NCBI GenBank assembly: GCA_903885595.1
Contig: CAISJJ010000129.1
Coordinates: 424-64,423 of the forward strand
Reading direction: 5' to 3'
Source: an uncultured Bacteroidales bacterium
Lineage (GTDB): Bacteria; Bacteroidota; Bacteroidia; Bacteroidales; FEN-979
DNA length: 64,000 nt
Position numbers and translations under genes: made by a program. Below are positions 1,249 through 40,349 of this stretch, in pieces; the stretch's first letter is position 1; every line of letters starts with the position of its first letter. The notes under the pieces are model-generated. The model was not told the DNA's origin and did no database searches. It saw only the letters and a program-made list of their open reading frames with translations.

Positions 1249-3624
1249 ATGAAGAATGTAATTTATCCGCTGTTCCTTTTGGTTTTTTTTGTTCAAATTG
1301 CAGCAGCTCAGAATTCACGGTTGATCCCCAAAACTGACCAACCTGTTTATTTTGATATTTCCCCTCCGCTGAGGGATATGGTCAAAATGTTACCCGAGCA
1401 ATATGATGGAAGCTGGAAAGAGACTGTCGTGAAAAATTTCTTTGACCTTAATGGGGAACAGCAGCGTGGACCTTTCATCAACGATCCGGGATTACAGAAT
1501 CATAATGGCTGGCTACCTGCCGATACAACGATTCAGAATTTTGAGGGAATGGGAAACATCAGTGGTTATATTCCGCCTGATACACACGGTGAAGCAGGAT
1601 TGGATCATTTTTTTCAGACTGTAAATTGTTCATATTCAATATACAACAAGAGTGGTGGAAAGATCCTGGGACCCTTTGCCAATAGTTCTGTCTGGCATGG
1701 GATGCCTAATAATGCAAACAGCGGTGATGCAATTGTCATTTATGATGAGCAGGCAAACCGATGGTTTTTTTCTCAGTTCTCGCTTCCAAATGGTTCATCC
1801 ACAGCCCCTTTTTATCAAATGATCGCAGTGTCTCAAACCCCTGATCCAACTGGCAGTTGGTACAGGTACCAGTATGAATTCTCTGATATGCCCGACTATC
1901 CCAAGTTTGGGGTTTGGCCTGATGCCTATTACATGTCGGCAAATCTTTTTTCAGGAGGAGCCGGTTGGGTCGGCAATGGAGCATATTGTTTTGACCGTGC
2001 AGCGATGCTTTCGGGAAGCCCCGATGCTTTGCGTGTTTCTTTTACCCTTCAACCAGGGGAGGAGGGGTTTATTACCCTTTTACCCGCTGATTGCGATGGA
2101 ACTTTTCCGGTTTATGGAACCCCGAATTATTTTACATATATCCGAACCAACGACAACCAGCGGCTGGGCGTGTTTGAATTTCAGGTTGATTGGGGAACTC
2201 CGGCTAATTCGAGTTTTGGAAATTTACTTTATCTGGATGTCAATCCATTTGGCACACTTGGTGGCTGGGGGGGTGGGATTCCCCAGAAGGATTCGCCGCA
2301 ATTGCTGGAAACGCTCTCTGACCGCCTGATGTACCGGCTTCAGTACAGGAAATTCAACGAATATGCATCCATGGTGCTAAATCATACGGTTGAAGCTGAT
2401 TTGGGTGTTGCTGGGGTAAGGTGGTATGAATTGCGAAAGGCAAATGAAGCCTGGAGTATATACCAGCAGTCGACCTATGCTCCGGCCGACGGCAACTACC
2501 GCTGGATGGGAAGCATTGCGCAGGATACCGCCGGCACTATTGCACTTGGCTATTCGGTCTCCGGTACCAATCTCTATCCGGGTATCCGATACACCGGAAG
2601 GTTAAAAACGGACCCGCTTAACCAGATGACCATCATGGAAAAAGCGATTATTGACGGCGGAGGTTCACAAACCGGCAATTGGAGTGGCCGTAGCCGCTGG
2701 GGTGATTACAGTGCCATGAGCGTTGATCCTTCAGCCCCGACAACCTTTTGGTATACAACAGAGTATTATGCATCGACCTCCTCAAGCAGCTGGCAAACAC
2801 GCATTGCCTCTTTTACTTTTGATAATGTTTTTTCTTCGGCAGTTTCATCCTTCCCTTCCCGTTTATGCTCAACAAGCACCGACTCCTCTCAACTCAACGC
2901 CTATGGCTATGGAGGATCAGGAACTTACACCTATACCTGGACTTCCATTCCGGAAGGATTTTATTCTGCTGTACCTAGCCCGAAGGTCAAGCCGCAGGAG
3001 ACAACCATATATATTGTAGCAATAAGCGATGGGAGTCAAACCAGGATCGACACTACCGAAGTCTCCATCGTCATGAACCTGGAAGCATCTGCCGGAAATG
3101 ACACCATCGTATGCTGGTATACATCACCCGTTCCCCTGTATGCCACGGCAACAAATTATAGCCGAATAGCATGGGGTACAGCAGGCGACGGATATTTTTC
3201 CAATGCATCTTCGCTGGTAACTGATTATTTCCCAGGGATGCAGGATAAAACAACTGGTTCTGTCAACCTGATATTGCTTGCTATACCCATAGCCCCTTGT
3301 GCTTCCAATTCCTTTAGCCCCAAGCATATTATTCTTGATCCCTGCACCGGCATTTCAGAACCTGATGCCGGTATCGTAAAAATCACCATTCAACCAAATC
3401 CGGCCCACGGGCAGGTTATGATCACGGTGAACGGACTAAAATGCAATGCTTCGCTCAAAATAAAAGGGATAGATAGCCAGACTATTTATTCGGATAATGT
3501 TGATCCGGCAGGAAAACAGGTTGTGACGAAGCAATTGGATGTAACAGGATACCCATCAGGATTGTATCTGTTACAATTGAACTGCGACGGTCAGATTACC
3601 ACATCCCGCTTTATTGTTCAATAA
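1249..3624 (+). CDS. Secreted T9SS type A sorting-domain protein of unknown function
   Basis: Signal peptide MKNVIYPLFLLVFFVQIAAAQ (start 1249 preferred over TTG 1081). C-terminal QPNPAHGQV...SGLYLLQL...SRFIVQ sorting domain. The core has PPD, YDEQANRW, DYPKFGVWPDAYY and RWGDY motifs. Confidence 0.85.
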   Translation: MKNVIYPLFLLVFFVQIAAAQNSRLIPKTDQPVYFDISPPLRDMVKMLPEQYDGSWKETVVKNFFDLNGEQQRGPFINDPGLQNHNGWLPADTTIQNFEGMGNISGYIPPDTHGEAGLDHFFQTVNCSYSIYNKSGGKILGPFANSSVWHGMPNNANSGDAIVIYDEQANRWFFSQFSLPNGSSTAPFYQMIAVSQTPDPTGSWYRYQYEFSDMPDYPKFGVWPDAYYMSANLFSGGAGWVGNGAYCFDRAAMLSGSPDALRVSFTLQPGEEGFITLLPADCDGTFPVYGTPNYFTYIRTNDNQRLGVFEFQVDWGTPANSSFGNLLYLDVNPFGTLGGWGGGIPQKDSPQLLETLSDRLMYRLQYRKFNEYASMVLNHTVEADLGVAGVRWYELRKANEAWSIYQQSTYAPADGNYRWMGSIAQDTAGTIALGYSVSGTNLYPGIRYTGRLKTDPLNQMTIMEKAIIDGGGSQTGNWSGRSRWGDYSAMSVDPSAPTTFWYTTEYYASTSSSSWQTRIASFTFDNVFSSAVSSFPSRLCSTSTDSSQLNAYGYGGSGTYTYTWTSIPEGFYSAVPSPKVKPQETTIYIVAISDGSQTRIDTTEVSIVMNLEASAGNDTIVCWYTSPVPLYATATNYSRIAWGTAGDGYFSNASSLVTDYFPGMQDKTTGSVNLILLAIPIAPCASNSFSPKHIILDPCTGISEPDAGIVKITIQPNPAHGQVMITVNGLKCNASLKIKGIDSQTIYSDNVDPAGKQVVTKQLDVTGYPSGLYLLQLNCDGQITTSRFIVQ

Positions 3625-3860
3625 ACCGGTTTGACGGGCGTGCCCGGCATGTATTTAAGGAAAATATTCCTGAAGCTTTCTTATGGATGATGTATCCTGT
3701 TGCCGACTGGATAAACGCTGCATTGAAATGTTTACCTCTTAGAATGCTTCAAAATGATCTGTAAGGTAAATTGACATTTAATTTTTCAACAAATGGTTCC
3801 CATTCCAAATATTTATTACATTTAGATCGCAAAAAATCAATCACTGTTAATTGATTAACA

Positions 3861-4631
3861 ATGGAATATAATATCCTGAAAATCCAAATTGCTGACCGTA
3901 TTGCCATCGTGACCATCAGCCGTCCTGCTGCACTGAATGCGCTGAATACGAATTTTTTTCAAGAGCTGAATCACTTTATTGATGATATTGAGCCACGGGA
4001 TGATGTCAAGGTTTTAATCATTACCGGTGAAGGAAAATCCTTTGTAGCTGGTGCCGATATTGCCGAAATGGCGAACATGAGCGCTGACGAAGGGTACGCT
4101 TTTTCAACCTATGGTCAGCGTACTTTCGACAGGCTTGAGCATCTTCATATTCCTGTTATAGCTGCTGTGAACGGGTATGCGCTAGGCGGTGGATGTGAAC
4201 TGGCCATGGCCTGTGATTTTCGAATTGCCAGTAAACTGGCAAAGTTTGGGCAGCCCGAGATGAACCTGGGTATGATTCCAGGGTACGCTGCAACACAAAG
4301 ATTGTCAAGGCTAACAGGCCTTGGGAATGCGCTCTGGCTCATTTTGACGGCGGAGACTATTTCGGCTGATGATGCATTGCGGATTGGTCTTGTGCAAAAA
4401 GTGACTGAGGCGGAATCTCTTCTGGATGAGGTGATGAAGCTGGCGTCAAAGATAGCAGGCAATGGATCTGAGGCGGTTACTGTTTCGAAAAAAGTGATAC
4501 GTGACGGCTTCTCCATGGATTTCAAGCAGGCCTCTGAATTGGAAGCAGCCGAATTTGGAAAACAATTTGACCGCGAACCAACCAAAGAGGGGATGAGAGC
4601 TTTCCTTGAGAAACGCAAACCAAACTGGTAA
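3861..4631 (+). CDS. Enoyl-CoA hydratase (crotonase)
   Basis: FVAGADI, NGYALGGGCELAMACDFR, FGQPEMNLGMIPG motifs; both catalytic Glu present. Confidence 0.95.
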   Translation: MEYNILKIQIADRIAIVTISRPAALNALNTNFFQELNHFIDDIEPRDDVKVLIITGEGKSFVAGADIAEMANMSADEGYAFSTYGQRTFDRLEHLHIPVIAAVNGYALGGGCELAMACDFRIASKLAKFGQPEMNLGMIPGYAATQRLSRLTGLGNALWLILTAETISADDALRIGLVQKVTEAESLLDEVMKLASKIAGNGSEAVTVSKKVIRDGFSMDFKQASELEAAEFGKQFDREPTKEGMRAFLEKRKPNW

Positions 4632-28939: not shown

Positions 28940-29060
28940 AAAGCTTTTGTCATGGCCTGTTTCAGAACAAATTGTTAATACTTTTTTCTCAGAAATGCAA
29001 ATTTATTTTCACCTGATTCAGGAATGTAAATTTTAACATATCCCGGTTTCAGAATTGCTA

Positions 29061-29089
29061 TTGAAACCCCCGAAAACTCCCTACTTTTG
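29061..29089 (+). promoter_or_regulatory. Putative -33/-7 promoter of the uvrA-like gene
   Basis: TTG at 29061-29063 and TACTTTTG at 29082-29089, 17 nt before ATG 29107. Confidence 0.6.
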
Positions 29090-29106
29090 CTGCTATATTT
29101 TCCCTC

Positions 29107-32100
29107 ATGCCTTCCAGCGAATCGATAAAAATCACCAACGCCTCTGAACATAATCTCCGTTCGGTTAGTCTTGAATTCCCAAAGAACAAACTGATTGTGG
29201 TTACCGGTGTCTCCGGATCAGGGAAATCATCGCTTATTTTCGATGTATTATACCGGGAAGCCGAAAGTCGCTATCTTGGCTCGTTTTCATCATTTGCCCG
29301 GCAGTTCATGGGCAAACTGAAAAAACCAGCAGTTGAAAAGGTGGATGGATTGTCACCTGCCATTGCCCTCGATCAGAAATCGGTGGTCTCCAATCCCCGC
29401 TCAACGGTTGGAACCATTACGGGCATATATGATTCGCTCCGGTTACTGTTTGCCCGCATCGGTCATCTGCCCGACAAAGGGGTGCCATTTCCATTGAACA
29501 GGAGTTTGTTTTCTTTTAATTCGCCCGAAGGCGCCTGCCCGGGATGCAAGGGAATTGGTGTTGAGGATTTCCTTGACCCGGAGTTATTGATTGCCGATCA
29601 AAACCGGACCCTGCGTCAGGGAGCGCTTAAAATTACAGCGCCCAATGGCTATATCATCTATTCACAGGTGACCCTTGATGTGCTTGACCAGGTTTGCCGG
29701 TCCGAAGGGTTTCATATTGATATCCCCTGGAAAGACCTTACACCAGAACAAAAAAATATTGTCCTTTACGGCAGCGACAAGATCGAAATTCCTTACGGGA
29801 AACATCCCCTCGAATCGCGTATGAAATGGAGTGGCATAACAGCGAAACCACGTGAACTGGGTTTTTACAAGGGGATTCTTCCGGTTATGGAGGTCATACT
29901 GCAACGTGACCGGAACAAAAATATCCTGCGGTTTGTTCGCAGCGGGCAATGTAAAGCATGTGGCGGCCGACGGCTAAATGATAAAGCCCTTTCGGTGAAA
30001 ATTCCCGGTGAAAGTACGATAGTTCATGAAATCAGACATGCTGACGAGAACACCGTCCATGGTTTTGATGGAACCATCCATGCAGATGAGAAAACCATCC
30101 AAGCATACGAAGATACTATCCATGAAGAAGAAGGAACCATCCCTGAATACGAGGGAACCATCCTTCCTTTAAACAAAAAAGAACCAACCTTTTTAAAATC
30201 ATACAACATTGCTGAACTGGCAGCGCTTCAGCTGGATGATCTTCAGAGTGTACTCCGGGGCATCCACTTCGAAAAACCAGATCAGATGATCGCAGGTCCA
30301 ATTGTCACACAAATATCGAAGCAGGTAGACCTGTTGAAACGGCTGGGACTTTGTTACCTGACGACCGATCGCGATTCAACCACCTTGTCGGGTGGGGAAT
30401 CTCAGCGTTTGCGAATGGCTACGCAGGCCGGAACCGGGCTAAGCGGTCTGATCTGCATTTTCGATGAACCCTCGGTCGGGCTGCATCAGCACGATATAAA
30501 AAATTTGATTGACATTCTGAAGGAAATCCGGGACAAGGGCAACACTGTAATCGTTGTGGAACATGAAGAGGAATTCATGCATCATGCCGATTGGCTGATC
30601 GATATTGGTCCTGGACCGGGAACTAACGGGGGCGAAGTGTTGTTCAACGGCACGTTGGAAATGGCCCGTACCCTGTCAGATACTGAAATCAGGAAAAGCC
30701 GGACCTTTTCCTTCCTGTTTGGATTCGAAAAGTTTGAAGGTGGAATCCCTCGGTCAGGACCCATTCCCATGGATTGTAACGGTAAACGCGTACTTCCTGA
30801 GGCAGGATTTATAACCATTGAAGGAGCTTCAGCGCGCAATCTAAGGAACATCGATGTCACCTTTATGCTTCAGGCCCTGAATGTAGTTACAGGAGTATCA
30901 GGCGCTGGAAAATCTACACTGACGAATCATATCCTGGGAGCATTTTTGAATAATAAGCTGCATGATGCCAATGAAGATGTAGGGAAGCACCTGGAAATCA
31001 AAGGCTGGGAAAGGATTGGGAAACTGATCTCCATTGACCAGGCCCCTATCGGCCGCACTCCGCGCAGCAATCCGGCCACCTACACCGGGTTGTTTGATTA
31101 TATCCGCGATCTCTATGCACGGCTACCGCTGGCAATCAGCCGAGGGTACGATAAAAGCCGGTTTTCATTCAATACAGCAGGGGGTCGCTGTGAATCCTGC
31201 CAGGGTGCAGGCTATCAGCAGGTGGGCATGCATTTCATGGGAAATGTGGAAGTGTTGTGCGAGGCGTGCGAAGGCAGACGGTTTGACGATGAAACACTTG
31301 AAATTACCTGTTCCGGCTATGGTGGTTATATTTCATCGCCCCCCGAGCTTACACAAAACAACCATTTTGACGCAGGGGTTACCCCAAAACCTGGAAAAAA
31401 TATTTCTGAAGTTTTGGAAATGACAGTTGCTGAGGCCCTTTCGTTTTTTTCAGATGAACCTAAGATTGCGCGATATCTTGGAACATTAGATAGTCTTGGC
31501 CTGGGATATCTTACACTTGGGCAGCGGTCTTCAACCCTGAGCGGCGGCGAAGCCCAACGAATTAAACTGGCAACTGAACTGGCAAAACCGCAATCGGATC
31601 ATACCCTCTACATTATGGATGAACCGACTACCGGATTGCACCAGGCTGATACCGGAATCTTGCTTAAAGCCCTCGACCGCTTGATAAAACAAGGCCATAC
31701 CGTCATCCTGATTGAACATCATTTGGGACTCATCGCAGCTGCCGATCATATCATCGACCTTGGCCCCGGAAGCGGACGCGATGGCGGGCGATTGATTTTT
31801 TCGGGGTCGCCGGAGGAGATGATTAATTGTAAGGATTCATTTACTGCTGAAGCGCTGAATGAATATCGAATATTGAACAACGAATATCGAATATCGAAGT
31901 TTTTTTCTAACGAAAATCAAGGTGTTTCAACCATACTGTCACAGGGCAATTCATTCGATGTTCGACATTCGACATTCGATATTCAACCTTCAATCTCCCT
32001 AAAGGGCATCTCCACGAACAACCTCAAACACATCGATGCCATTATCCCGCACAACAAGATCACGGTAATCACGGGTGTTTCCGGAAGCGGAAAATCTTCC

Positions 32101-34581
32101 CTGGCATTTGATACCATTTTTGCCGAAGGGCAGAACCGTTTCCTGGAAAGCTTCTCTCCTTATGTGCGAAGTCGCATCGGGCTTAAGGAAAAGGCCGATT
32201 TTGAAAACATTTCCGGACTTACACCCACGTTTGCTGTCGACCAGGGTGGCACCAGCCGGAATTCTCGTTCCACCGTAGGAACCATGACAGGTATCTATGA
32301 CCATTACCGGCTTTTATTCTCGCGCATCGGGAGAAAGGAGGAGGGGAAGGAATCTCGAATATCGAATATTGAATATCGAATGTCGAAGTCTGACCCTGAC
32401 CAGCAGAATGGCAAAATCGTAAATCGTAAATCGTATATCGTAAATCCTCCGCCTTCCTCCAGTCTCTTTTCCTTCAACCACAAGCATGGCGCTTGCCCCG
32501 ATTGCGACGGATTGGGTTTGCTAACGGTTTGTGATCCGGAAAAATTGATTACCCACCCTGGGAGATCCTTGGTGGATGGCGCCATGGATGGTACCAAGAC
32601 CGGGAAATTCTATGGCGATCCATATGGGCAGTATGTGGCCACCCTCAAAGAAGTCGGCGTTCAACATGGCATTGATTTTAACCACACATGGGATTTACTT
32701 TCGAGAGAGGCAAAGGAGATTGCTTTGTATGGAACCGGAGAGGAGATGTACCAAGTTACCTGGGAATTCAAACGGGATGGCCGCATCGGGGAACATCACT
32801 TTACAGGACCCTGGAAAGGAATGGTGACCCTAGTCAATGAAGAATACAGCCGTAAACATGCCGACCATCGGGGCGAAAGCATGATATCGCTCATGAAATC
32901 TGGACCATGTCTTTCCTGTTCTGGGACAAGGTTGCGAAAGGATGCACTGGAGTATGTCGTTCAGGGAAAAAATATTGCTGAGGTTTCGGCGCTGTCGGTT
33001 TCGGCATCGGTCACCTTCTTTAAATCTTTGCTGCCTCAGCTATCAAATTCAATGGAAGTGGAGTCTGCCAAACCACTGATTGGTGAAATTTTACGGAAAC
33101 TAGAGTTTCTATCCGGACTTGGCTTATCATACATTACCATCGACCGCATTTCTTCTACCTTGTCGGGTGGCGAATCCCAACGCATCAGGCTGGCCGGGCA
33201 GCTTGGCTCAGGCCTGACCGGTATCACCTATGTTCTTGATGAACCTACCATCGGACTTCATCCCAGGGATACAGCTAAACTGATGAAACTAATCCGTTCA
33301 CTGCAGGAAAAAGGCAATACTGTCGTAATTGTTGAACACGACAGGGATGTCATCCTCTCAGCCGATTACATCCTTGACATCGGTCCTGGCGCCGGAAAAA
33401 CCGGCGGAACCGTGGTGGCAGCAGGAACACCATCCGAAATTATGAATAATCCCGCTTCAGTAACTGGTCCCTATCTTTTGGAACAGTCAGGCATTTTGCC
33501 TTTGAAAACTTCATCGAAAGCCCTCACGGGGTTAAGCGATGATCTTTCTGCCCAGTCTCGTAGTTTGTCTCTTGGTACTTTCTCAAGCGGGGCCATGGCA
33601 AGTGATAGTCTGAAATCAACCAGGATCAGCCGGAAAAGTATCGGATATTGCCATCGAAACCTGAAACCCGGGCTGGTCATAAGGAATGCCTTTGCCAATA
33701 ATCTTAAGGGTTTCGATCTTGAAATTCCCTCTACCGGGATAATTGCCATCACCGGCGTGTCGGGCAGTGGGAAATCCACTCTGCTATTTGAAGTGATACT
33801 TGCCTCCTGGGAAAATAACAGGCCTGTCGGATGTTCCGGCATTGATGGATTTGAACATTTTCAGCAAATCATCAGCGTTCATCAGCGCACAGGCTTTAAC
33901 TCCTCCCTTGCCACACCGGCCACTTATACTGGTGTTTTCGATCATATCCGCGACCTGTTCGCCGCTTTGTCTGATGCAAAACAATCGGGGGTTGGTAAAA
34001 GCGCTTTTTCATACCTGAATAAGGAGGGGAGATGCGCAACATGTGCCGGTGCAGGTCAGATCCGTATTTCCATGGATTTTCTGTCGGATGTGAATACCCC
34101 ATGTGAACAATGCCAGGGAAAGCGATACAATTCTGAAATCCTTTCATTCCGTTATCAGGAGCACAATATTGCAACCGTTCTGGAGATGACGGTTGCAGAA
34201 GCAGCTCTTTTTTTTAACGGTCATAAGAACATTTCACATAAACTTCAAATGCTTGACAAGGTGGGATTGGGTTACCTCCGGATCGGACAATCCCTTGAAA
34301 CACTTTCGGGAGGTGAATCTCAGCGCCTGGCACTGGCAGCCGAACTGATGAACCCGGGGAAGGGATCCGCATTATACCTGTTTGAGGAACCTTCGACCGG
34401 GCTTCATTTTCGCGATATTGAATTTTTAATGACGTTATTCCATCAACTGGCCGATCAGGGGAATACTTTGCTTGTAATTGAACATGATCCGATGATCATC
34501 GCTCATGCCGACCATGTAATTGAACTAGGGCCTGATGGAGGCGACCAGGGAGGATACCTGGTAAACGTCTCTTCGCCTTGA
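29107..34581 (+). CDS. uvrA: Double-length UvrA-family ABC ATPase (two fused class II-like UvrA units)
   Basis: Four Walker A motifs (GVSG[S/A]GKS[S/T]), four LSGGE[S/A]QR signatures, four [D/E]EP..GLH Walker B motifs and Zn-finger CxxC pairs; 1824 aa. Confidence 0.92.
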   Translation: MPSSESIKITNASEHNLRSVSLEFPKNKLIVVTGVSGSGKSSLIFDVLYREAESRYLGSFSSFARQFMGKLKKPAVEKVDGLSPAIALDQKSVVSNPRSTVGTITGIYDSLRLLFARIGHLPDKGVPFPLNRSLFSFNSPEGACPGCKGIGVEDFLDPELLIADQNRTLRQGALKITAPNGYIIYSQVTLDVLDQVCRSEGFHIDIPWKDLTPEQKNIVLYGSDKIEIPYGKHPLESRMKWSGITAKPRELGFYKGILPVMEVILQRDRNKNILRFVRSGQCKACGGRRLNDKALSVKIPGESTIVHEIRHADENTVHGFDGTIHADEKTIQAYEDTIHEEEGTIPEYEGTILPLNKKEPTFLKSYNIAELAALQLDDLQSVLRGIHFEKPDQMIAGPIVTQISKQVDLLKRLGLCYLTTDRDSTTLSGGESQRLRMATQAGTGLSGLICIFDEPSVGLHQHDIKNLIDILKEIRDKGNTVIVVEHEEEFMHHADWLIDIGPGPGTNGGEVLFNGTLEMARTLSDTEIRKSRTFSFLFGFEKFEGGIPRSGPIPMDCNGKRVLPEAGFITIEGASARNLRNIDVTFMLQALNVVTGVSGAGKSTLTNHILGAFLNNKLHDANEDVGKHLEIKGWERIGKLISIDQAPIGRTPRSNPATYTGLFDYIRDLYARLPLAISRGYDKSRFSFNTAGGRCESCQGAGYQQVGMHFMGNVEVLCEACEGRRFDDETLEITCSGYGGYISSPPELTQNNHFDAGVTPKPGKNISEVLEMTVAEALSFFSDEPKIARYLGTLDSLGLGYLTLGQRSSTLSGGEAQRIKLATELAKPQSDHTLYIMDEPTTGLHQADTGILLKALDRLIKQGHTVILIEHHLGLIAAADHIIDLGPGSGRDGGRLIFSGSPEEMINCKDSFTAEALNEYRILNNEYRISKFFSNENQGVSTILSQGNSFDVRHSTFDIQPSISLKGISTNNLKHIDAIIPHNKITVITGVSGSGKSSLAFDTIFAEGQNRFLESFSPYVRSRIGLKEKADFENISGLTPTFAVDQGGTSRNSRSTVGTMTGIYDHYRLLFSRIGRKEEGKESRISNIEYRMSKSDPDQQNGKIVNRKSYIVNPPPSSSLFSFNHKHGACPDCDGLGLLTVCDPEKLITHPGRSLVDGAMDGTKTGKFYGDPYGQYVATLKEVGVQHGIDFNHTWDLLSREAKEIALYGTGEEMYQVTWEFKRDGRIGEHHFTGPWKGMVTLVNEEYSRKHADHRGESMISLMKSGPCLSCSGTRLRKDALEYVVQGKNIAEVSALSVSASVTFFKSLLPQLSNSMEVESAKPLIGEILRKLEFLSGLGLSYITIDRISSTLSGGESQRIRLAGQLGSGLTGITYVLDEPTIGLHPRDTAKLMKLIRSLQEKGNTVVIVEHDRDVILSADYILDIGPGAGKTGGTVVAAGTPSEIMNNPASVTGPYLLEQSGILPLKTSSKALTGLSDDLSAQSRSLSLGTFSSGAMASDSLKSTRISRKSIGYCHRNLKPGLVIRNAFANNLKGFDLEIPSTGIIAITGVSGSGKSTLLFEVILASWENNRPVGCSGIDGFEHFQQIISVHQRTGFNSSLATPATYTGVFDHIRDLFAALSDAKQSGVGKSAFSYLNKEGRCATCAGAGQIRISMDFLSDVNTPCEQCQGKRYNSEILSFRYQEHNIATVLEMTVAEAALFFNGHKNISHKLQMLDKVGLGYLRIGQSLETLSGGESQRLALAAELMNPGKGSALYLFEEPSTGLHFRDIEFLMTLFHQLADQGNTLLVIEHDPMIIAHADHVIELGPDGGDQGGYLVNVSSP
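30046..30171 (+). repeat. In-frame 21-nt tandem repeat x6 inside uvrA
   Basis: ENTVHGF DGTIHAD EKTIQAY EDTIHEE EGTIPEY EGTILPL; DNA core ACCATCC. Confidence 0.85.
31861..31984. repeat. In-frame inverted GAATRTC cassette in the uvrA inter-unit linker
   Basis: Five heptads + GAAGT, about 50 nt spacer, then TTCGATGTTCGACATTCGACATTCGATATTC. Confidence 0.9.
32350..32445 (+). repeat. In-frame GAATRTC arm plus AAATCGT array inside uvrA
   Basis: Five heptads + GAAGT (32350-32389); AAATCGT x3 ATATCGT AAAT (32414-32445). Confidence 0.9.
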
Positions 34582-34701
34582 CAATAAAAAAATAGGGAAA
34601 GAACCCAATCCTGGCCGCAGTTCTCTCTTTCCCGGATAAAAACAGCGATATTCCAGTGTTTTTTAGTTTTTCTTTTCCGCAGGAACAAATACTGACAGGA
34701 T

Positions 34702-34732
34702 AAAAAAAACCGCCCAGTGTTTGGGGCGGTTT
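34702..34732 (-). terminator. Rho-independent terminator of the OYE gene
   Basis: AAACCGCCC-loop-GGGCGGTTT stem followed by a T-run on the minus strand, in a convergent gap. Confidence 0.75.
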
Positions 34733-34937
34733 CGCATTTGCGATTTAAATCATCCGGCAATCTTGAGATTCCGGATCAGCCTTTGGCTTTTAACACATGT
34801 TCCGGATCAGCGAAACATGCCATAAAATCAAAATAGTTCTGTTACTTTTTTGTAGGTTTCTAAGTTTTAAAATTAGTTGAACAAATATAACTCAAATGAG
34901 GCAGATGTCAAGAAATTTAACGTTTCTTAACACAACA

Positions 34938-36029
34938 TCAGGATGGCTGATAAGGTGGATAATCAGTATATCCATGATGGTCAGGAGTATAGAATGTGTT
35001 AAAATCCCACTGTGTGTTTATATCCCAATCATTCGTCATCCGTTCCACCAAGTCGGGGTTTGTAATGTAGGGTTTTCCAAAAGCAATCAGGTCGGCCAAT
35101 CCACTCTGGAGATCACGTTCGGCAGTCTCCTTTGAATATCCTCCGGCCAGGATCAGGGTGTTATTCAATTTTTCGCGGATGGTTTGTTTGATGGTAATGG
35201 GGACTGCAGGAGCTCCCATGGCGCTGTGATCAACCAGGTGAATGTAAAGAACACCCAGCTTGTCGAGCTGTGAAGCCAGGTAGGTGTATGTGTCGTTGAT
35301 TTCCGGGTAGGGAACCATGCCGCCATTGACCCCATAAGGCGATAGCCTGATAGCAACTTTATCCATCCCGATCGACTGCCCAACTGATTCCACCACTTCC
35401 AGCACAAAGCGGCAGCGGTTTTCGATGCTTCCACCATATTCATCGGTTCGCTGGTTGCTGACGGGTGAAAGAAACTGTTCAAGGAGGTATCCGTTGGCCC
35501 CATGGAGTTCCACTCCGTCAAAGCCTGCAGTAATGGCATTGATGGCTGACTTCATGAATTCCTTTTTGGTATTTATAATATCTTCTGATGTCATCTCCCT
35601 GGGTATAGGTAAGTCCTGCATTCCCTGGCTGTCGGTATACATTTGCCCTGATGCGGCTATGGCTGATGGTGCAATAACTTCAGCACCCAAAGGAAGATTA
35701 TCCTGATGGCCCATCCTGCCGGTATGCATGAACTGGATGAAAATTTTCCCGCCTTTGCTATGAACAGCATCAGTTATCTTTTTCCAGCCAGTTACCTGAG
35801 CATCGCTGTAAATTCCGGGAATCCTGGCATATCCCAAACCGTTTGGAGAGGGGGAAGCACCTTCAGTGATGATCAGGCCGGCACTGGCGCGCTGCCCATA
35901 ATAGGTTGCAATCAGATCGTTCGGGATATTGTTAAGGGCACGCGACCGCGTCATCGGGGCCATCACGACCCTGTTTTTTAATTCAATATTTCCCAGTTTA
36001 TATGGGCTGAATAGTTTGTACATGTTCAT
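34938..36029 (-). CDS. Old yellow enzyme alkene reductase (NemA-like)
   Basis: MAPMTRSR, YYGQRASAGLIITEG, FDGVELHGANGYLLEQFL, NQRTDEYGGSIENR and GYTDYP motifs. Confidence 0.95.
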   Translation of the reverse strand: MNMYKLFSPYKLGNIELKNRVVMAPMTRSRALNNIPNDLIATYYGQRASAGLIITEGASPSPNGLGYARIPGIYSDAQVTGWKKITDAVHSKGGKIFIQFMHTGRMGHQDNLPLGAEVIAPSAIAASGQMYTDSQGMQDLPIPREMTSEDIINTKKEFMKSAINAITAGFDGVELHGANGYLLEQFLSPVSNQRTDEYGGSIENRCRFVLEVVESVGQSIGMDKVAIRLSPYGVNGGMVPYPEINDTYTYLASQLDKLGVLYIHLVDHSAMGAPAVPITIKQTIREKLNNTLILAGGYSKETAERDLQSGLADLIAFGKPYITNPDLVERMTNDWDINTQWDFNTFYTPDHHGYTDYPPYQPS

Positions 36030-36113
36030 GAAATAAGTAAATGATTAAATTTTTTTGCAAAATTATTGCTTTTATTTAGAATTAATATAAATTTGTAGGA
36101 GATTCTTTCAAAA

Positions 36114-36803
36114 ATGAACAAAATAGTAAACAATGCCCTGGAGGCAATCAAAGGGATAGAGAGCAATATGAGCTTGATGTTGGGCGGCTTTGGCTTATGC
36201 GGGATCCCCGAAAACTGCATTGCAGCATTAGCTGCAAGTGATATAACTGGTTTAACCTGCATTTCGAACAATGCCGGGGTCGATGGATTTGGGCTTGGTA
36301 TGTTATTACGCCACCACCAGATCAGGAAAATGATCTCATCATATGTTGGAGAGAATAAGGAATTTGAGCGTCAACTGCTCAGCGGGGAGCTTGAAGTAGA
36401 ATTGATTCCACAAGGAACCCTTGCCGAACGTATCAGGGCAGGAGGGGCAGGTATCCCGGCTTTTTTTGTCCCGGCAGGTTTCGGAACCGAAGTAGCCGAA
36501 GGAAAACCTGTAAGGGAGTTCGACGGTAAAATGTATTTGGAAGAACGCTGGCTGAAAGCTGATTTCGCCATTGTCAAGGCATGGAAAGGGGATACCTACG
36601 GAAATCTTATTTACAGGCATACTGCCAATAACTTCAACCAGGCCATGGCCACCGCCGGCAGAATCACTATTGCTGAGGTGGAGGAGCTTGTCCCGGCCGG
36701 AACCCTCGATCCCGACCACATCCATACTCCCGGTGTATTTGTCCAGCGCATTTTCCAGGGAAGCAACTATGAAAAACGAATCGAATTCGCCACAACCCGC
36801 TAA
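36114..36803 (+). CDS. scoA: 3-oxoacid CoA-transferase subunit A
   Basis: GGFGLCGIPEN, ISSYVGEN, PQGTLAERIRAGGAGIPAF and NFNQAMATAG motifs. Confidence 0.92.
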   Translation: MNKIVNNALEAIKGIESNMSLMLGGFGLCGIPENCIAALAASDITGLTCISNNAGVDGFGLGMLLRHHQIRKMISSYVGENKEFERQLLSGELEVELIPQGTLAERIRAGGAGIPAFFVPAGFGTEVAEGKPVREFDGKMYLEERWLKADFAIVKAWKGDTYGNLIYRHTANNFNQAMATAGRITIAEVEELVPAGTLDPDHIHTPGVFVQRIFQGSNYEKRIEFATTR

Positions 36804-36828
36804 TATGCCGCACACAAATTATAATTCC

Positions 36829-36910
36829 TCACTTGTCATTCGTCACTCGTCATTGGTAATTGGTCATTAGTCATTTTTCATTTGTAAATCGTACCTCGTA
36901 AATCGTAAAT
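36829..36910 (+). repeat. Composite CAYTNGT + AAATCGT heptamer array between scoA and scoB
   Basis: CACTTGT CATTCGT CACTCGT CATTGGT AATTGGT CATTAGT ... AAATCGT ACCTCGT AAATCGT. Confidence 0.9.
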
Positions 36911-36918
36911 TTTCTCCC

Positions 36919-37575
36919 ATGGGTTTAGATAAAAATGGAATAGCAAAACGAATCGCCAGGGAACTCCACGACGGTTATTATGTTAACCTGGGCATAGGAA
37001 TACCGACCCTGGTAGCCAATTACATTCCTGCCGGAATGCAGATTGTGCTCCAGTCGGAAAACGGCTTGCTCGGCATCGGACCGTACCCTTCAAAAGATGA
37101 TATCGATCCCGACCTGATCAATGCAGGAAAGCAAACCATTACGGCACTGCCGGGGGCAGCTTTCTTCGATTCAGCAGCAAGTTTCGCCATGATCCGGGGC
37201 GGACATATTGATCTCACCGTCCTGGGTGCCTTTGAAGTATCGGAAACCGGCGATATCGCTTCCTGGAAGATTCCCGGGAAGCTTGTGAAGGGCATGGGAG
37301 GCGCCATGGACCTGGTTGCATCGGCCAGGAATATCATTGTGGCCATGATGCACACCAATCCGCAAGGGGAATCAAAATTGCTGAAGAAATGCACCCTGCC
37401 GCTGACCGGTGTCGGGGTTGTCAAACGTATCGTTACCGACCTGGCAGTCGTAGACGTAACGCCCATGGGGTTCAAACTGATTGAACGTGCTCCCGGGGTA
37501 TCTGTTCAGGAAATCATTAATGCAACTGAGGGTAACCTCATCGTTGAAGGAGAAATCCCGGAAATAGCTATTTAA
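36919..37575 (+). CDS. scoB: 3-oxoacid CoA-transferase subunit B
   Basis: [17 protein letters not shown] (catalytic Glu), MIRGGHID and GMGGAMDLV motifs. Confidence 0.93.
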
Positions 37576-37578
37576 AAT

Positions 37579-37745
37579 GAATGTCGAATGTCGAATATCG
37601 AATAACGAATATCGAATAACAAACCCATTATTTAGAAAATCTAAAATCCTAAAATGTTACCAGCAATTCGTCACTCGTCATTAGTAATTAGTCATTTGTC
37701 ACTTGTCATTCGTAAATCGTAAATCGTAAATCGTATATCGTAAAT
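37579..37745 (+). repeat. Composite GAATRTC + CAYTNGT + AAATCGT array between scoB and hmgA
   Basis: Six GAATNNC heptads right after the stop; a CAYTNGT block; AAATCGT x3 ATATCGT AAAT ending 4 nt before the ATG. Confidence 0.92.
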
Positions 37746-37749
37746 TACC

Positions 37750-38907
37750 ATGTCTCACTACTTTTCCCTCGGCCAGATTCCCCGAAAACGGCATGTTGTA
37801 TTCCGCAAACCCGACGGAGGCCTTTATGCCGAACAGCTGGTTTCAACGGAGGGTTTTTCCGATGTCTATTCCCTGGTATATCATTGTCATCCGCCAACCG
37901 TGGTGACAAAAATTGATGAGGCATATTCCATTGCCCCGAAAATAGCCGATCCGAAAAATATGCAACACCGGCTTTTTCGCGGATTTGATGCTGTGCCGGC
38001 CGATGATTACCTCGAAAGCCGCATTCCAATGCTGGTCAACAGCGATTGTCAAATCAGTCTGGCTGCCCCGCGAAAATCGATGAGCGATTATTACTTTAAA
38101 AATTCCGGGGCCGATGAGATGATCTTTATCCATCGCGGCGAAGGCACCTTGAAAACCATGTATGGAAACATTCCTTTCAGTTATGGTGATCATTTGGTCA
38201 TTCCGCGCGGTGTAATCTATCAGATTGAATTCCGCGCTTCCGACAACAGGCTTTTCATTCTCGAATCATTTACCCCGCTTCGCTTCCCGAAACGATACCT
38301 CAATAAATCCGGGCAACTGCTTGAGCACGCACCGTTTTGTGAGCGCGACATCCGTAAGCCGCAGGTACTGGAAACCCATGATGAGAAAGGAGATTTCCTT
38401 GTCAGGATCAAGCGGGAAGATATGATATGGCCTTACCATTTTGCTACACATCCCTTCGATCTGGTTGGCTGGGATGGGTTTCATTATCCATTTGCTTTTT
38501 CCATTCATGACTTTGAGCCTATCACCGGCCGCTTGCATCAGCCGCCCCCGGTTCATCAGACTTTTGAAACCCCGTCTTTTGTGGTTTGCGCTTTTGTTCC
38601 CCGGTTGTATGATTACCATCCCGACTCTATCCCGACTCCATACAACCACAGCAATGTCGATTCGGATGAAGTGCTTTATTACGTGGATGGCGATTTCATG
38701 AGCCGGAACAATATAAAGCCCGGGAATATAACCCTGCACCCGACAGGGATCGTGCACGGTCCGCATCCGGGTGCAGTAGAGCGGAGCATCGGGGCAAGAG
38801 AGACAAAGGAACTCGCGCTGATGGTCGATACGTTTAAACCGCTTAAGATTACGGAACAGGCGTTTGCCGTTGAAGATCCTGACTATTACAGGTCATGGTT
38901 TGTGTAA
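37750..38907 (+). CDS. hmgA: Homogentisate 1,2-dioxygenase (short bacterial type)
   Basis: PFDLVGWDG, HQPPPVHQTF, PYNHSNVDSDEVLYY and HPTGIVHGPHPG iron-site motifs. Confidence 0.93.
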   Translation: MSHYFSLGQIPRKRHVVFRKPDGGLYAEQLVSTEGFSDVYSLVYHCHPPTVVTKIDEAYSIAPKIADPKNMQHRLFRGFDAVPADDYLESRIPMLVNSDCQISLAAPRKSMSDYYFKNSGADEMIFIHRGEGTLKTMYGNIPFSYGDHLVIPRGVIYQIEFRASDNRLFILESFTPLRFPKRYLNKSGQLLEHAPFCERDIRKPQVLETHDEKGDFLVRIKREDMIWPYHFATHPFDLVGWDGFHYPFAFSIHDFEPITGRLHQPPPVHQTFETPSFVVCAFVPRLYDYHPDSIPTPYNHSNVDSDEVLYYVDGDFMSRNNIKPGNITLHPTGIVHGPHPGAVERSIGARETKELALMVDTFKPLKITEQAFAVEDPDYYRSWFV

Positions 38908-38913
38908 AAGGTG

Positions 38914-39005
38914 AATGCAGGCAATGCAGGCAATGAATGGCAATGAAGGCAATGAAGGCAGGCAATGAAGGCAATGCATACAAGGAAATAATACAGGCAA
39001 TGAAG
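38914..39005 (+). repeat. 9-mer GGCAATGMA array downstream of hmgA
   Basis: About seven GGCAATGCA/GGCAATGAA units. Confidence 0.88.
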
Positions 39006-39112
39006 AAAACCAAGGGAATCCAGTTAATTTCATCCAAGCTTGAAATGAAAAAATGACAGTTAATAACAAACATAATGTGACTAAAGCGCTCAATATCAAA
39101 CAGTTTTATAAA

Positions 39113-39130
39113 CCCGGACTGAAGTCCGGG
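39113..39130. repeat. REP-like perfect palindrome
   Basis: CCCGGACT-GA-AGTCCGGG followed by ACAATTGA. Confidence 0.7.
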
Positions 39131-39192
39131 ACAATTGATAATCAATCGATAGCATTATTACAACATCAGATCCGATACTTTTTGGAGTAGGC

Positions 39193-39237
39193 TCAATCTT
39201 CAAATCCCCAAATCCTCAAATCTTCAAATTTTCAAAT
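39193..39237. repeat. 8-mer CAAATCYT array before hppD
   Basis: Its reverse complement begins ATTTGAAAATTTGAAGAT, identical over 18 nt to 4637-4654. Confidence 0.85.
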
Positions 39238-39248
39238 CATAAAAAGAC

Positions 39249-40349
39249 ATGACTCCTAAAGATGATTTTCTTCCGATAAACGGAACCGATTATGTTGAGT
39301 TTTATGTGGGCAATGCCAAGCAGGCCGCCCATTTCTATCAAACCGCATTTGGATTTCAGCCGTTAGCCTATGCCGGGCTGGAAACCGGGTTGAAGGACCG
39401 CACCTCTTATGTGATCCGGCAGGAAAAGATCACATTTGTTTTCACAACTGCATTGATCCCTGATTCACCCATCGCCGATCATTGTAAATTACACGGAGAT
39501 GGAGTCAAGGTGATAGCCCTGTGGGTTGATGATGCCCTTAAATCATTTGACGAGACTACCAATCGGGGCGCTAAACCCTATCTGCAACCCATTGTTGAAA
39601 AAGATGACCAAGGTATGGTGGTGTTGTCAGGAATTCACACATATGGCGAAACGGTGCATGTTTTTGTAGAACGGAAAAATTATAATGGCGTTTTCCTGCC
39701 AGGATTCGTAAAATGGGATCCTTTGTACCGCCCTGAACCGGCCGGATTGCTCTACGTTGACCATATAGTCGGCAATGTGGATTGGGGACAAATGGATACG
39801 TGGGTAAATTTTTATCACGACGTATTGGGGTTTGACCAGCTGATCTCCTTCGACGACAAGGATATTTCAACCGAATACACAGCCTTGATGAGCAAGGTGG
39901 TGGCAAGCAGGAATCTTTATATCAAGTTTCCGCTGAATGAACCTGCCCGTGGAAAGAAAAAATCGCAGATCGAGGAGTACATCGATTTCTACAGAGGTGC
40001 AGGCGTACAGCATGTTGCCATGGCCACGAACAACATCCTGAAGACAGTTGCTGATCTGAAAAGCCGCGGGGTGGAGTTTCTACGGGTTCCTGATAAATAT
40101 TACGACCTGCTCCTCCAGCGCGTGGGGACCATCGATGAAACCATTGAACCGCTGCGTGAACTTGGCATCCTGGTCGACCGGGATGAAGATGGTTACCTGT
40201 TGCAGATTTTCACCAAGCCGGTTGAGGACCGCCCCACCGTTTTCTATGAAATTATACAGCGTAAAGGCGCCAAATCATTTGGGAAAGGCAACTTTAAGGC
40301 ACTGTTCGAATCAATCGAACTGGAACAGGGAAGAAGAGGAACCTTGTAG
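39249..40349 (+). CDS. hppD: 4-hydroxyphenylpyruvate dioxygenase
   Basis: DHIVGNV, SQIEEY, GAGVQHVA, GYLLQIFT and FYEIIQRKGAKSFGKGNFKALFESIE motifs. Confidence 0.97.
   Translation: MTPKDDFLPINGTDYVEFYVGNAKQAAHFYQTAFGFQPLAYAGLETGLKDRTSYVIRQEKITFVFTTALIPDSPIADHCKLHGDGVKVIALWVDDALKSFDETTNRGAKPYLQPIVEKDDQGMVVLSGIHTYGETVHVFVERKNYNGVFLPGFVKWDPLYRPEPAGLLYVDHIVGNVDWGQMDTWVNFYHDVLGFDQLISFDDKDISTEYTALMSKVVASRNLYIKFPLNEPARGKKKSQIEEYIDFYRGAGVQHVAMATNNILKTVADLKSRGVEFLRVPDKYYDLLLQRVGTIDETIEPLRELGILVDRDEDGYLLQIFTKPVEDRPTVFYEIIQRKGAKSFGKGNFKALFESIELEQGRRGTL

Follow-up and report, generated by a model that had tools for sequence, protein, structure and literature searches.

The stretch of DNA studied here, 64,000 nucleotides (nt) from an uncultured Bacteroidales bacterium of the genus FEN-979 (assembly GCA_903885595.1, contig CAISJJ010000129.1, positions 424 to 64,423; hereafter the window), carries a long uvrA gene in which simple repeat DNA is translated into protein. 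The 96 nt at 32350–32445 consist of two heptamer microsatellite arrays, (GAATATC)5.4 and (AAATCGT)4.6, separated by a unique spacer and read in frame within a loop of the second UvrA unit of the gene. Our verdict is that the locus is a microsatellite that is translated and tolerated within a hypervariable loop. The AAATCGT array is a 32-nt word, AAATCGTAAATCGTAAATCGTATATCGTAAAT, that recurs exactly in front of the nearby hmgA gene, and a first-pass annotation made from the letters of the window had taken this identity to mean that a composite cassette is copied between the two loci. We assign a probability of roughly 0.78 to a different reading, in which the arrays are translated in a disordered loop and the match results from membership of one repeat family together with a constraint imposed by the reading frame.

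The cassette and its loop

The features of the loop, all on the forward strand, are as follows.

32332–32466, + strand: unit-2 UvrA loop between the motifs RIG and FSFN (SLFSFN), 45 codons here against 13 in other genera
32350–32387, + strand: GAATATC-family array of 5.4 units, read (S)RISNIEYRMS, called by Tandem Repeats Finder (TRF) and free of stops in all three frames
32388–32413, + strand: non-repeat spacer of 26 nt, AGTCTGACCCTGACCAGCAGAATGGC; a 36-nt probe containing it has no match elsewhere in the genome
32414–32445, + strand: AAATCGT array, i.e., the 32-mer (four units plus AAAT), read KIVNRKSYIVN; TRF gives period 7 and 4.7 copies at 32414–32446
32434–32436, + strand: TAT (Tyr) codon supplied by the variant unit ATATCGT in place of TAA, as read from sequence and frame

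Both arrays contain at least three head-to-tail 7-nt units according to TRF, and with the spacer they add 32 codons to the gene. The core of the spacer, CCCTGACC, is also found in the loop of genome G002.

The insert had been placed at first pass where class I UvrA carries its UvrB-binding domain, and the site had been judged a likely permissive loop; both proposals are borne out. Unit 2 (863 amino acids, aa) matches class I UvrA structures at E values of about 1e-200. When aligned with the class I protein 9gxk, its residues 1–115 correspond to 27–139 and its residues 158–500 to 285–618. The intervening residues 140–284 of 9gxk (approximately 145, the region of Zn module 1 and the UvrB-binding domain) have no counterpart in unit 2, which carries 43 residues instead. 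The structure prediction suggested alongside these proposals agrees with them: in an AlphaFold2 model of unit 2 built with 18 orthologues (mean predicted local distance difference test score, pLDDT, 72), residues 117–149 score below 50 and lack secondary structure, while the flanks score 82–91 and 84; the cassette occupies residues 119–150. The model and the variable loop length, 11–60 aa within the genus against 13 aa in other genera, support a floppy, predicted disordered surface loop at this position.

An assembly artefact at the uvrA locus was considered and ruled out. In Logan contigs from three lake-water metagenome runs belonging to two studies, the locus is tiled with 0–1 differences, and five contigs encode a protein identical to the product of the 1824-aa open reading frame (ORF), so the cassette is genuine DNA. 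In the same resource, the summed word depth along 32415–32456 in runs X1–X5 reaches 2,800–24,000 over the AAATCGT array against 3–16 on its flanks, and arrays of AAATCGT units must therefore be extremely abundant in these lake metagenomes. An Rfam scan of 29000–39500 with E values up to 0.1 gave no match, so the arrays are not explained by a known RNA family.

A shared 32-mer expected within its repeat family

The 32-mer stands at 32414–32445, within the ORF at 29107–34581, and at 37714–37745 in an intergenic region, both times on the forward strand and with no mismatch between the copies. A scan of the whole assembly (6,019,827 bases in 547 contigs, 44% G+C) found these two copies alone, whereas no match is expected in a shuffled window. 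The second copy ends 4 nt 5′ of the hmgA ATG at 37750 and lies 5.3 kb from the first. Arrays of the GAATATC type precede both copies, at 32350–32387 on the uvrA side and at 37579–37618 on the hmgA side. The coordinates, the translation, the shared ATATCGT unit and the upstream arrays of the first-pass annotation are therefore all accurate, and the exact-match search that it recommended is answered, for the whole genome, by the two copies given here. The features on the hmgA side are the following.

37579–37618, + strand: array of the GAATATC family, beginning 4 nt downstream of the scoB stop codon
37666–37713, + strand: GTCAYTN (ATTCGTC) array called by TRF, abutting the AAATCGT array
37714–37745, + strand: the other copy of the 32-mer, an AAATCGT array that ends 4 nt short of the hmgA ATG

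These arrays belong to populations that pervade the genome. TRF returned 1,051 period-7 rows, with AAATCGT as the top unit, and between 64 and 96 AAATCGT arrays and between 23 and 35 GAATATC arrays recur in the assembly. In a dedicated scan, 64 AAATCGT arrays of at least three units contained 287 units, 197 of them AAATCGT (0.69) and 39 ATATCGT (0.136), by far the commonest variant. By crude longest-ORF gene calls, under which 82% of the genome is coding, 504 of 792 arrays (64%) are intergenic against 18% of non-coding genome, and approximately 100 lie deep inside ORFs. The AAATCGT arrays are also oriented next to gene starts: 28–31 of the 64 stand 0–19 nt upstream of a same-strand start codon, compared with four in an opposite-orientation control, and the hmgA-leader array is a typical member of this 5′-leader class. 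Array sizes range from two to more than 30 units. A fixed module length of 32–33 nt throughout the genome was entertained and rejected, as array lengths are broadly distributed, with slight peaks at 25–27 and 31–34 nt and a long tail. Dozens of other genes carry similar in-frame arrays; separately, long arrays of 15–31 units were seen deep in crude ORFs of 390–1148 aa (C386 7188–7356, C455 560–775, C42 5633–5738 and C419 15557–15694).

The family is confined to one genus among the 31 genomes compared. The word (AAATCGT)3 occurs in 13 of 19 congeners and in none of 12 genomes from other genera, with 0–337 matches per genome, and the same pattern read backward gave no match in any of the 31. Its abundance across the congeners (G000–G018) varies by two orders of magnitude, from 337 in G002, 171 in G012, 162 in G011 and 53 in the present genome (G000) to none in six others, which suggests lineage-specific blooms.

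Against this background, the match is unremarkable. With the uvrA array held fixed and 282 units shuffled among the other 63 AAATCGT arrays, the 32-mer appeared in 2.6 other arrays on average, and the probability of at least one occurrence was 0.94; one was observed. In-register 32-mers are commonly shared: the pure word occurs in 11 arrays, the variant order AVAA in three, and AAVA, VAAA and AAAV in two each (A, consensus unit; V, variant unit). In blastn searches, several other arrays matched the uvrA array as well as the hmgA array does. The identity is thus above chance against random sequence alone and is expected within the AAATCGT family of this genome. The first-pass annotation had itself named a frequency no higher than independent AAATCGT arrays predict as an argument against copying, and that is the frequency found.

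A GAATRTC plus AAATCGT composite moving as a unit between the uvrA loop and the hmgA leader would account for an exact 32-mer with the same variant at both sites and for a GAATATC-type array upstream of each. The sequence around the 32-mer argues otherwise. Identity between the loci ends at the array borders, the variant units of the two GAATATC arrays come in a different order, and the spacers measure 26 nt in uvrA against 95 nt on the hmgA side, where two further arrays lie inside. A spacer probe of 36 nt (32383–32418) and the 135-nt loop are both unique in the genome, all other matches covering a single array; copies with the same internal non-repeat sequence and with defined ends, as in a mobile composite or an element resembling a miniature inverted-repeat transposable element (MITE), were not found. 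The one word common to the two spacers, the 7-mer ACCAGCA, has a chance expectation of approximately 9% by our own estimate and is not counted as evidence of homology. Moreover, the closest paralogue of the hmgA leader is the scoB leader (70 nt, 88.6% identity) and not uvrA. A GTCAYTN plus AAATCGT composite also stands upstream of scoB (36824–36910), as it does upstream of scoB in the related locus L034, and the hmgA spacer follows the general layout here, with a GAATATC array after the stop codon and GTCAYTN plus AAATCGT before the next start.

A comparison of filled and empty alleles had been proposed at first pass as a test. Empty alleles exist for both sites, and no target-site duplication or terminal inverted repeat is visible at the empty or near-empty loops (11–17 aa in P0016, P0019, P0022 and P0034; 13 aa outside the genus) or at the empty hmgA leader of L035, although these sequences are too diverged for a strict test.

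Reading frame and the rescue of a stop-bearing unit

The variant unit that the two copies share has an explanation in the frame of uvrA. Seven and three are coprime, and an array of three or more units is therefore read in all three phases. AAATCGT contains TAA at each unit junction, so that a pure array meets an in-frame stop every 21 nt, or once per three units. In uvrA the in-frame junction falls at 32434–32436, where an A to T change at 32436 (ATATCGT) gives TAT instead of TAA. As the TAA must go at this register, the shared ATATCGT unit is a requirement that the commonest variant of the family happens to satisfy. The variant is forced by the reading frame in uvrA, and its presence at both sites is a further point against a copied composite.

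The same avoidance of stops is visible elsewhere. The uvrA array is the only one of the 64 AAATCGT arrays that lies in sense inside an ORF, and for 92 of 98 arrays located deep in ORFs the consensus unit is free of stops in the sense direction. In relatives that carry AAATCGT in the same register, the critical codon is TAT in the loop of L035 and in the inter-unit linker of L022, and AAA in L034, in its loop as well as its linker. An internal translation start driven by the AAATCGT array was considered as a separate role and rejected: within approximately 55 nt downstream there is no in-frame ATG, GTG or TTG, and the ATG at 32486 is out of frame.

Age and orthology of the two arrays

Two relatives, L034 and L035, retain the gene order uvrA, OYE, scoAB, hmgA, hppD, fahA and allow both sites to be dated. 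In all three genomes, the AAATCGT array of the uvrA loop stands at the same place, just before the conserved CC(C)TCTTCCAG (PSSSL), and comprises the same 32 nt (four units plus AAAT); the GAATATC array of the loop also aligns between the present genome and L034. In a quick tree, the L035 protein branches at the base of the genus. The scoB–hmgA spacer, on the other hand, measures 174 nt in the present genome, 62 nt with the family inverted in L034 and 1 nt in L035. The array in uvrA is therefore old and that of the hmgA leader is specific to a lineage, which excludes recent copying into uvrA; the array pair has been inherited across at least two or three species. With the chance expectation, the frame constraint and the bounded identity described above, this largely refutes the copied composite, which we regard as hardly credible.

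Two further observations come from these relatives. The AAATCGT array is identical at 30/32 and 29/32 positions, compared with 69% and 76% for the flanking codons (Fisher p = 0.004 and 0.06). The syntenic spacers of L034 (12092–12475 and 10787–10992) hold very long arrays of other periods, namely (GACTTTGT)n of approximately 20 units, (GCAATGCAG)n and (AATTTTCAAATCATC)n.

A hypervariable loop across the genus

The loop was surveyed in 33 orthologous loci and 35 congeneric proteins. Its length ranges from 11 to 60 aa within the genus and is almost always 13 aa outside it, while the equivalent loop of unit 1 has 15 aa nearly everywhere. In approximately 30 congeners, the unit-2 loop is filled by different heptamer families, another in nearly every species: GTCACGC (read ASRVTRH), ATTCGTC, GAAATCC, ATCCCGC, GGCAGTT (14 units), and GAATATC and AAATCGT, each in either orientation. 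The content differs even between sister lineages, and length differences among close relatives are in frame, in steps of 33 nt. In L014, for example, the loop (3833–4012) consists of four 33-nt higher-order modules, each made of four GTCACGC-type heptamers plus ACCCT and giving an 11-residue protein repeat; relatives close to L014 vary by whole modules, with loops of 27, 38 or 60 aa. The closest homologue among 5.8 billion proteins is just 70–71% identical, and no nearer allele of the same species with an empty loop was found there.

Such turnover invites an adaptive explanation, in which the arrays would rapidly supply new surface sequence at the position where class I UvrA binds UvrB, e.g., for a change or avoidance of partners. 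A loop that differs in nearly every species, and even between sister lineages, beside a unit-1 loop fixed at 15 aa would fit this idea. However, the loop has no conserved residues and is predicted to lack order, similar in-frame arrays are present in dozens of other genes, and genomes outside the genus simply have 13 aa here; we therefore hold adaptive diversification to be quite unlikely.

A contingency switch is another possibility raised by the arrays, since one 7-nt unit gained or lost would shift the frame of unit 2 and truncate the protein. The unit length is not a multiple of three, four to five units can slip, and two congeners (G005 and G009) have their two UvrA units in separate frames or ORFs at the array-built linker. 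Against phase variation at this locus, the AAATCGT array has the same length and phase in three species, no indel appears in contigs of four runs, the same protein is recorded on five contigs, and close relatives differ in length by the in-frame 33-nt steps. A switch accordingly seems very improbable.

The host gene and its other arrays

The gene that carries the loop is a fusion, and its other array-built segments are listed with it below.

29107–34581, + strand: two class-II-like UvrA units fused in one frame, with four ABC ATPase modules and 1824 aa, from the stop-free translation and Pfam
30070–30163, + strand: in-frame array of period 21 and 4.5 copies in UvrA unit 1, from the tandem repeat call and an alignment with 18 orthologues
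31861–31991, + strand: palindromic in-frame GAATATC/GATATTC arrays forming the linker between the UvrA units, from TRF and alignments

Pfam reports ABC_tran (PF00005) and UvrA_DNA-bind (PF17755) twice each on the 1824-aa ORF. Fused homologues of approximately 1650 aa are widespread, with at least 8000 matches labelled "excinuclease ABC subunit UvrA" in Bacteroidota, Acidobacteriota, Chlorobi and others. Besides the class I structures, unit 2 matches 2vf7 and 7sh1 at E values of 1e-136 and 1e-121. Class IIa UvrA proteins by definition lack the first Zn module and the UvrB-binding domain (PMC9328131), and unit 2 agrees with class II, as Zn module 1 and the UvrB-binding domain are absent while the ABC modules and the DNA-binding (insertion) domain are kept. 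The resemblance to class II (IIa) proteins such as Deinococcus radiodurans UvrA2 (2vf7) and Ecm16 (7sh1) (PMC9328131; PMC10192343) lies in the lack, in each unit, of Zn module 1 and the UvrB-binding domain exactly where the cassette sits. Unlike UvrA2 and Ecm16, the present protein joins two units in one chain, and the connecting loop of unit 2 is repeat-derived sequence.

Repeats occur at other places in this gene as well. The period-21 array, GGAACCATCCATGAAGACGAA, gives the unit-1 loop approximately 60 extra residues; it is unique to this genome and absent in 17 of 18 aligned orthologues, and L014 has a shorter, different insert at this position. The inter-unit linker is an inverted pair of GAATATC arrays (33 nt, 82% complementary) and, across loci L013–L033, is array-built in most congeners. 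In L020 the linker is enlarged approximately 12-fold, its left arm holding about 12 copies of NEYRISN, and the linkers of L022 and L034 contain in-frame AAATCGT arrays. In G005 (L015, about 3290–3650) and G009, the linker has collapsed to gaatatcgaatattcaatattc; unit 1 stops at a TGA, and unit 2 lies in another frame without an obvious start, giving ORFs of 845 and 829 aa in G005 and of 829 and 807 aa in G009. A split gene, a frameshift and an assembly error are all conceivable explanations.

The loop and the linker are also complementary to each other. The GAATATC array of the loop (32343–32387) can be paired with the right arm of the linker (31954–31998), 344 nt upstream, over 45 nt at 76%, with a 27-nt core at 89%. 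Judged from base complementarity, the two segments could form a long-range stem in the mRNA around the N-terminal ABC segment of unit 2.

Proposed mechanism

To account for the locus, we infer slippage as the origin of the arrays, conversion as their homogeniser and a functionally neutral loop. Arrays would arise and change length by slipped-strand mispairing; within genes they would persist only where the site is permissive, where the added length is a multiple of three and where no frame of the unit gives a stop. The AAATCGT array would have survived in uvrA because its register is occupied by the commonest variant, ATATCGT, which turns TAA into TAT. Conversion within and between arrays would hold the units near the family consensus.

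Several observations weigh against this account of the locus as family membership plus frame constraint. A GAATATC array stands no more than 250 nt upstream of only three among 81 AAATCGT arrays, and the uvrA and hmgA loci supply two of the three; this rarity, like the distance of just 5.3 kb between the sole two copies of the 32-mer, also speaks for the copied composite. The conservation of the array above its flanking codons could also come from selection on the nucleotide sequence or from insertion that recurs at a single site. Slippage at the locus was assessed from contigs only, and Logan contigs break at arrays and drop rare variants. Local clustering, finally, gives some support to templating or conversion between the two AAATCGT arrays: arrays of the same family lie within 6 kb of each other in 79 pairs against 26 expected (approximately threefold; maximum 44 in 300 label shuffles), and AAATCGT arrays in 16 pairs against 8.2 expected, a value reached in eight of 500 shuffles.

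These facts bear on an alternative in which the two AAATCGT arrays became identical through gene conversion or template switching that acts locally between neighbouring members of one family, on the arrays alone and not on the composite. The threefold enrichment within 6 kb, the conservation above the flanks and the neighbouring position of the two 32-mer copies all favour it. So does the order of variants in the GAATATC arrays, since the loop array and the left arm of the linker at 31861, 490 nt upstream, carry the same series GAATATC–GAATATT–GAA, here and in L020, L021 and L024. Conversely, chance alone predicts a match somewhere in the genome, the clustering could reflect co-regulated neighbouring genes, and no conversion tract can be defined within 32 nt. 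As an explanation of the identity in its own right, local conversion is possible but doubtful; it is compatible with our best explanation as the homogenising step. Conservation, clustering and shared variant order point to homogenisation or short-range templating among single arrays rather than of a composite, and this is the only sense in which "copying between loci" keeps some support.

A bolder proposal, which we consider unlikely, is that arrays are written and rewritten as modules of approximately 32 nt and four to five units by a templated process (inter-array conversion or template switching) or by an unknown enzyme, with a preference for sites that already hold an array. Templated writing would account for the turnover of families in the loop, the fixed 32-nt length and phase in three species, the conservation above the flanks and the clustering within a few kilobases. 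Were this so, the genus would possess a mechanism for making new protein sequence, at defined loops, out of non-coding repeat DNA.

Under our preferred reading, translated microsatellites in a tolerant loop, no new mobile element is shown, as the claim of a hopping cassette fails. The locus instead offers a clean natural example of microsatellite DNA becoming protein, in which, within one uncultured freshwater genus, a loop of a conserved protein resembling a DNA-damage sensor has been filled repeatedly with different 7-base repeats. Two filters on the surviving repeats are visible, namely a length that is a multiple of three and stops that are absent or repaired. Simple slippage does not explain the conservation of the array above its flanks, its fixed length in three species or the local clustering of same-family arrays. 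For annotation, such loops inflate protein lengths and can pass for mobile-element insertions.

Comparison with known systems

Heptamer repeats have been described in several bacterial lineages. In Beggiatoaceae, cyanobacteria and some Bacteroidetes, TAACTGA repeats are found close upstream of start codons (MacGregor 2015, PMC4679880), and the GGGAATC/GGGGAYT heptamers of Xanthomonas and Nostoc are abundant and mostly intergenic, with approximately four units being common (Rehm 2015, PMC4692102). The arrays reported here resemble these and the cyanobacterial STRR (short repetitive sequences in tandem arrays) in being tandem 7-nt units that form hundreds of short, lineage-specific and mostly intergenic arrays per genome (PMC4679880; PMC4692102). 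Like the former set, they favour, in one orientation, the last few bases before a start codon (PMC4679880), and they share the size of approximately four units with the latter (PMC4692102). In contrast to the published heptamers, the units differ and are confined to one uncultured Bacteroidales genus; they are translated in a conserved protein, the family in the loop differs by species, and a stop-bearing unit is rescued by a variant. The published surveys report under-representation in coding regions, and translated array loops are not described there (PMC4679880; PMC4692102).

Heptamer simple sequence repeat families are already published, including their bias towards intergenic DNA and their placement at start codons, and translated repeat DNA in protein loops is known from other types of element. 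In the literature searched, we found no hypervariable loop whose unit families take each other's place across a genus, no stop-bearing unit saved by the commonest variant of its family and no array more conserved than its own flanking codons.

Two further systems offer parallels for repeats inside conserved genes. Vioque is said to have described, in 1997, how the RNase P RNA gene of heterocyst-forming cyanobacteria contains STRR arrays that vary from strain to strain; the likeness lies in heptamer arrays that occupy a permissive place in a functional, conserved gene and differ by strain. There, reportedly, the host is an RNA gene and the arrays extend a helix, whereas here the array lies in a protein-coding frame, which adds the constraints of a multiple of three and of freedom from stops. 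Rickettsia palindromic elements (RPE) are dispersed palindromes of 100–150 bp with conserved sequence that lie in frame in protein genes; in both cases, conserved proteins tolerate translated non-coding repeats in regions exposed at their surface. Unlike RPE, the cassette of the UvrA loop has no dispersed full-length copies and is built of two simple tandem arrays with a unique spacer.

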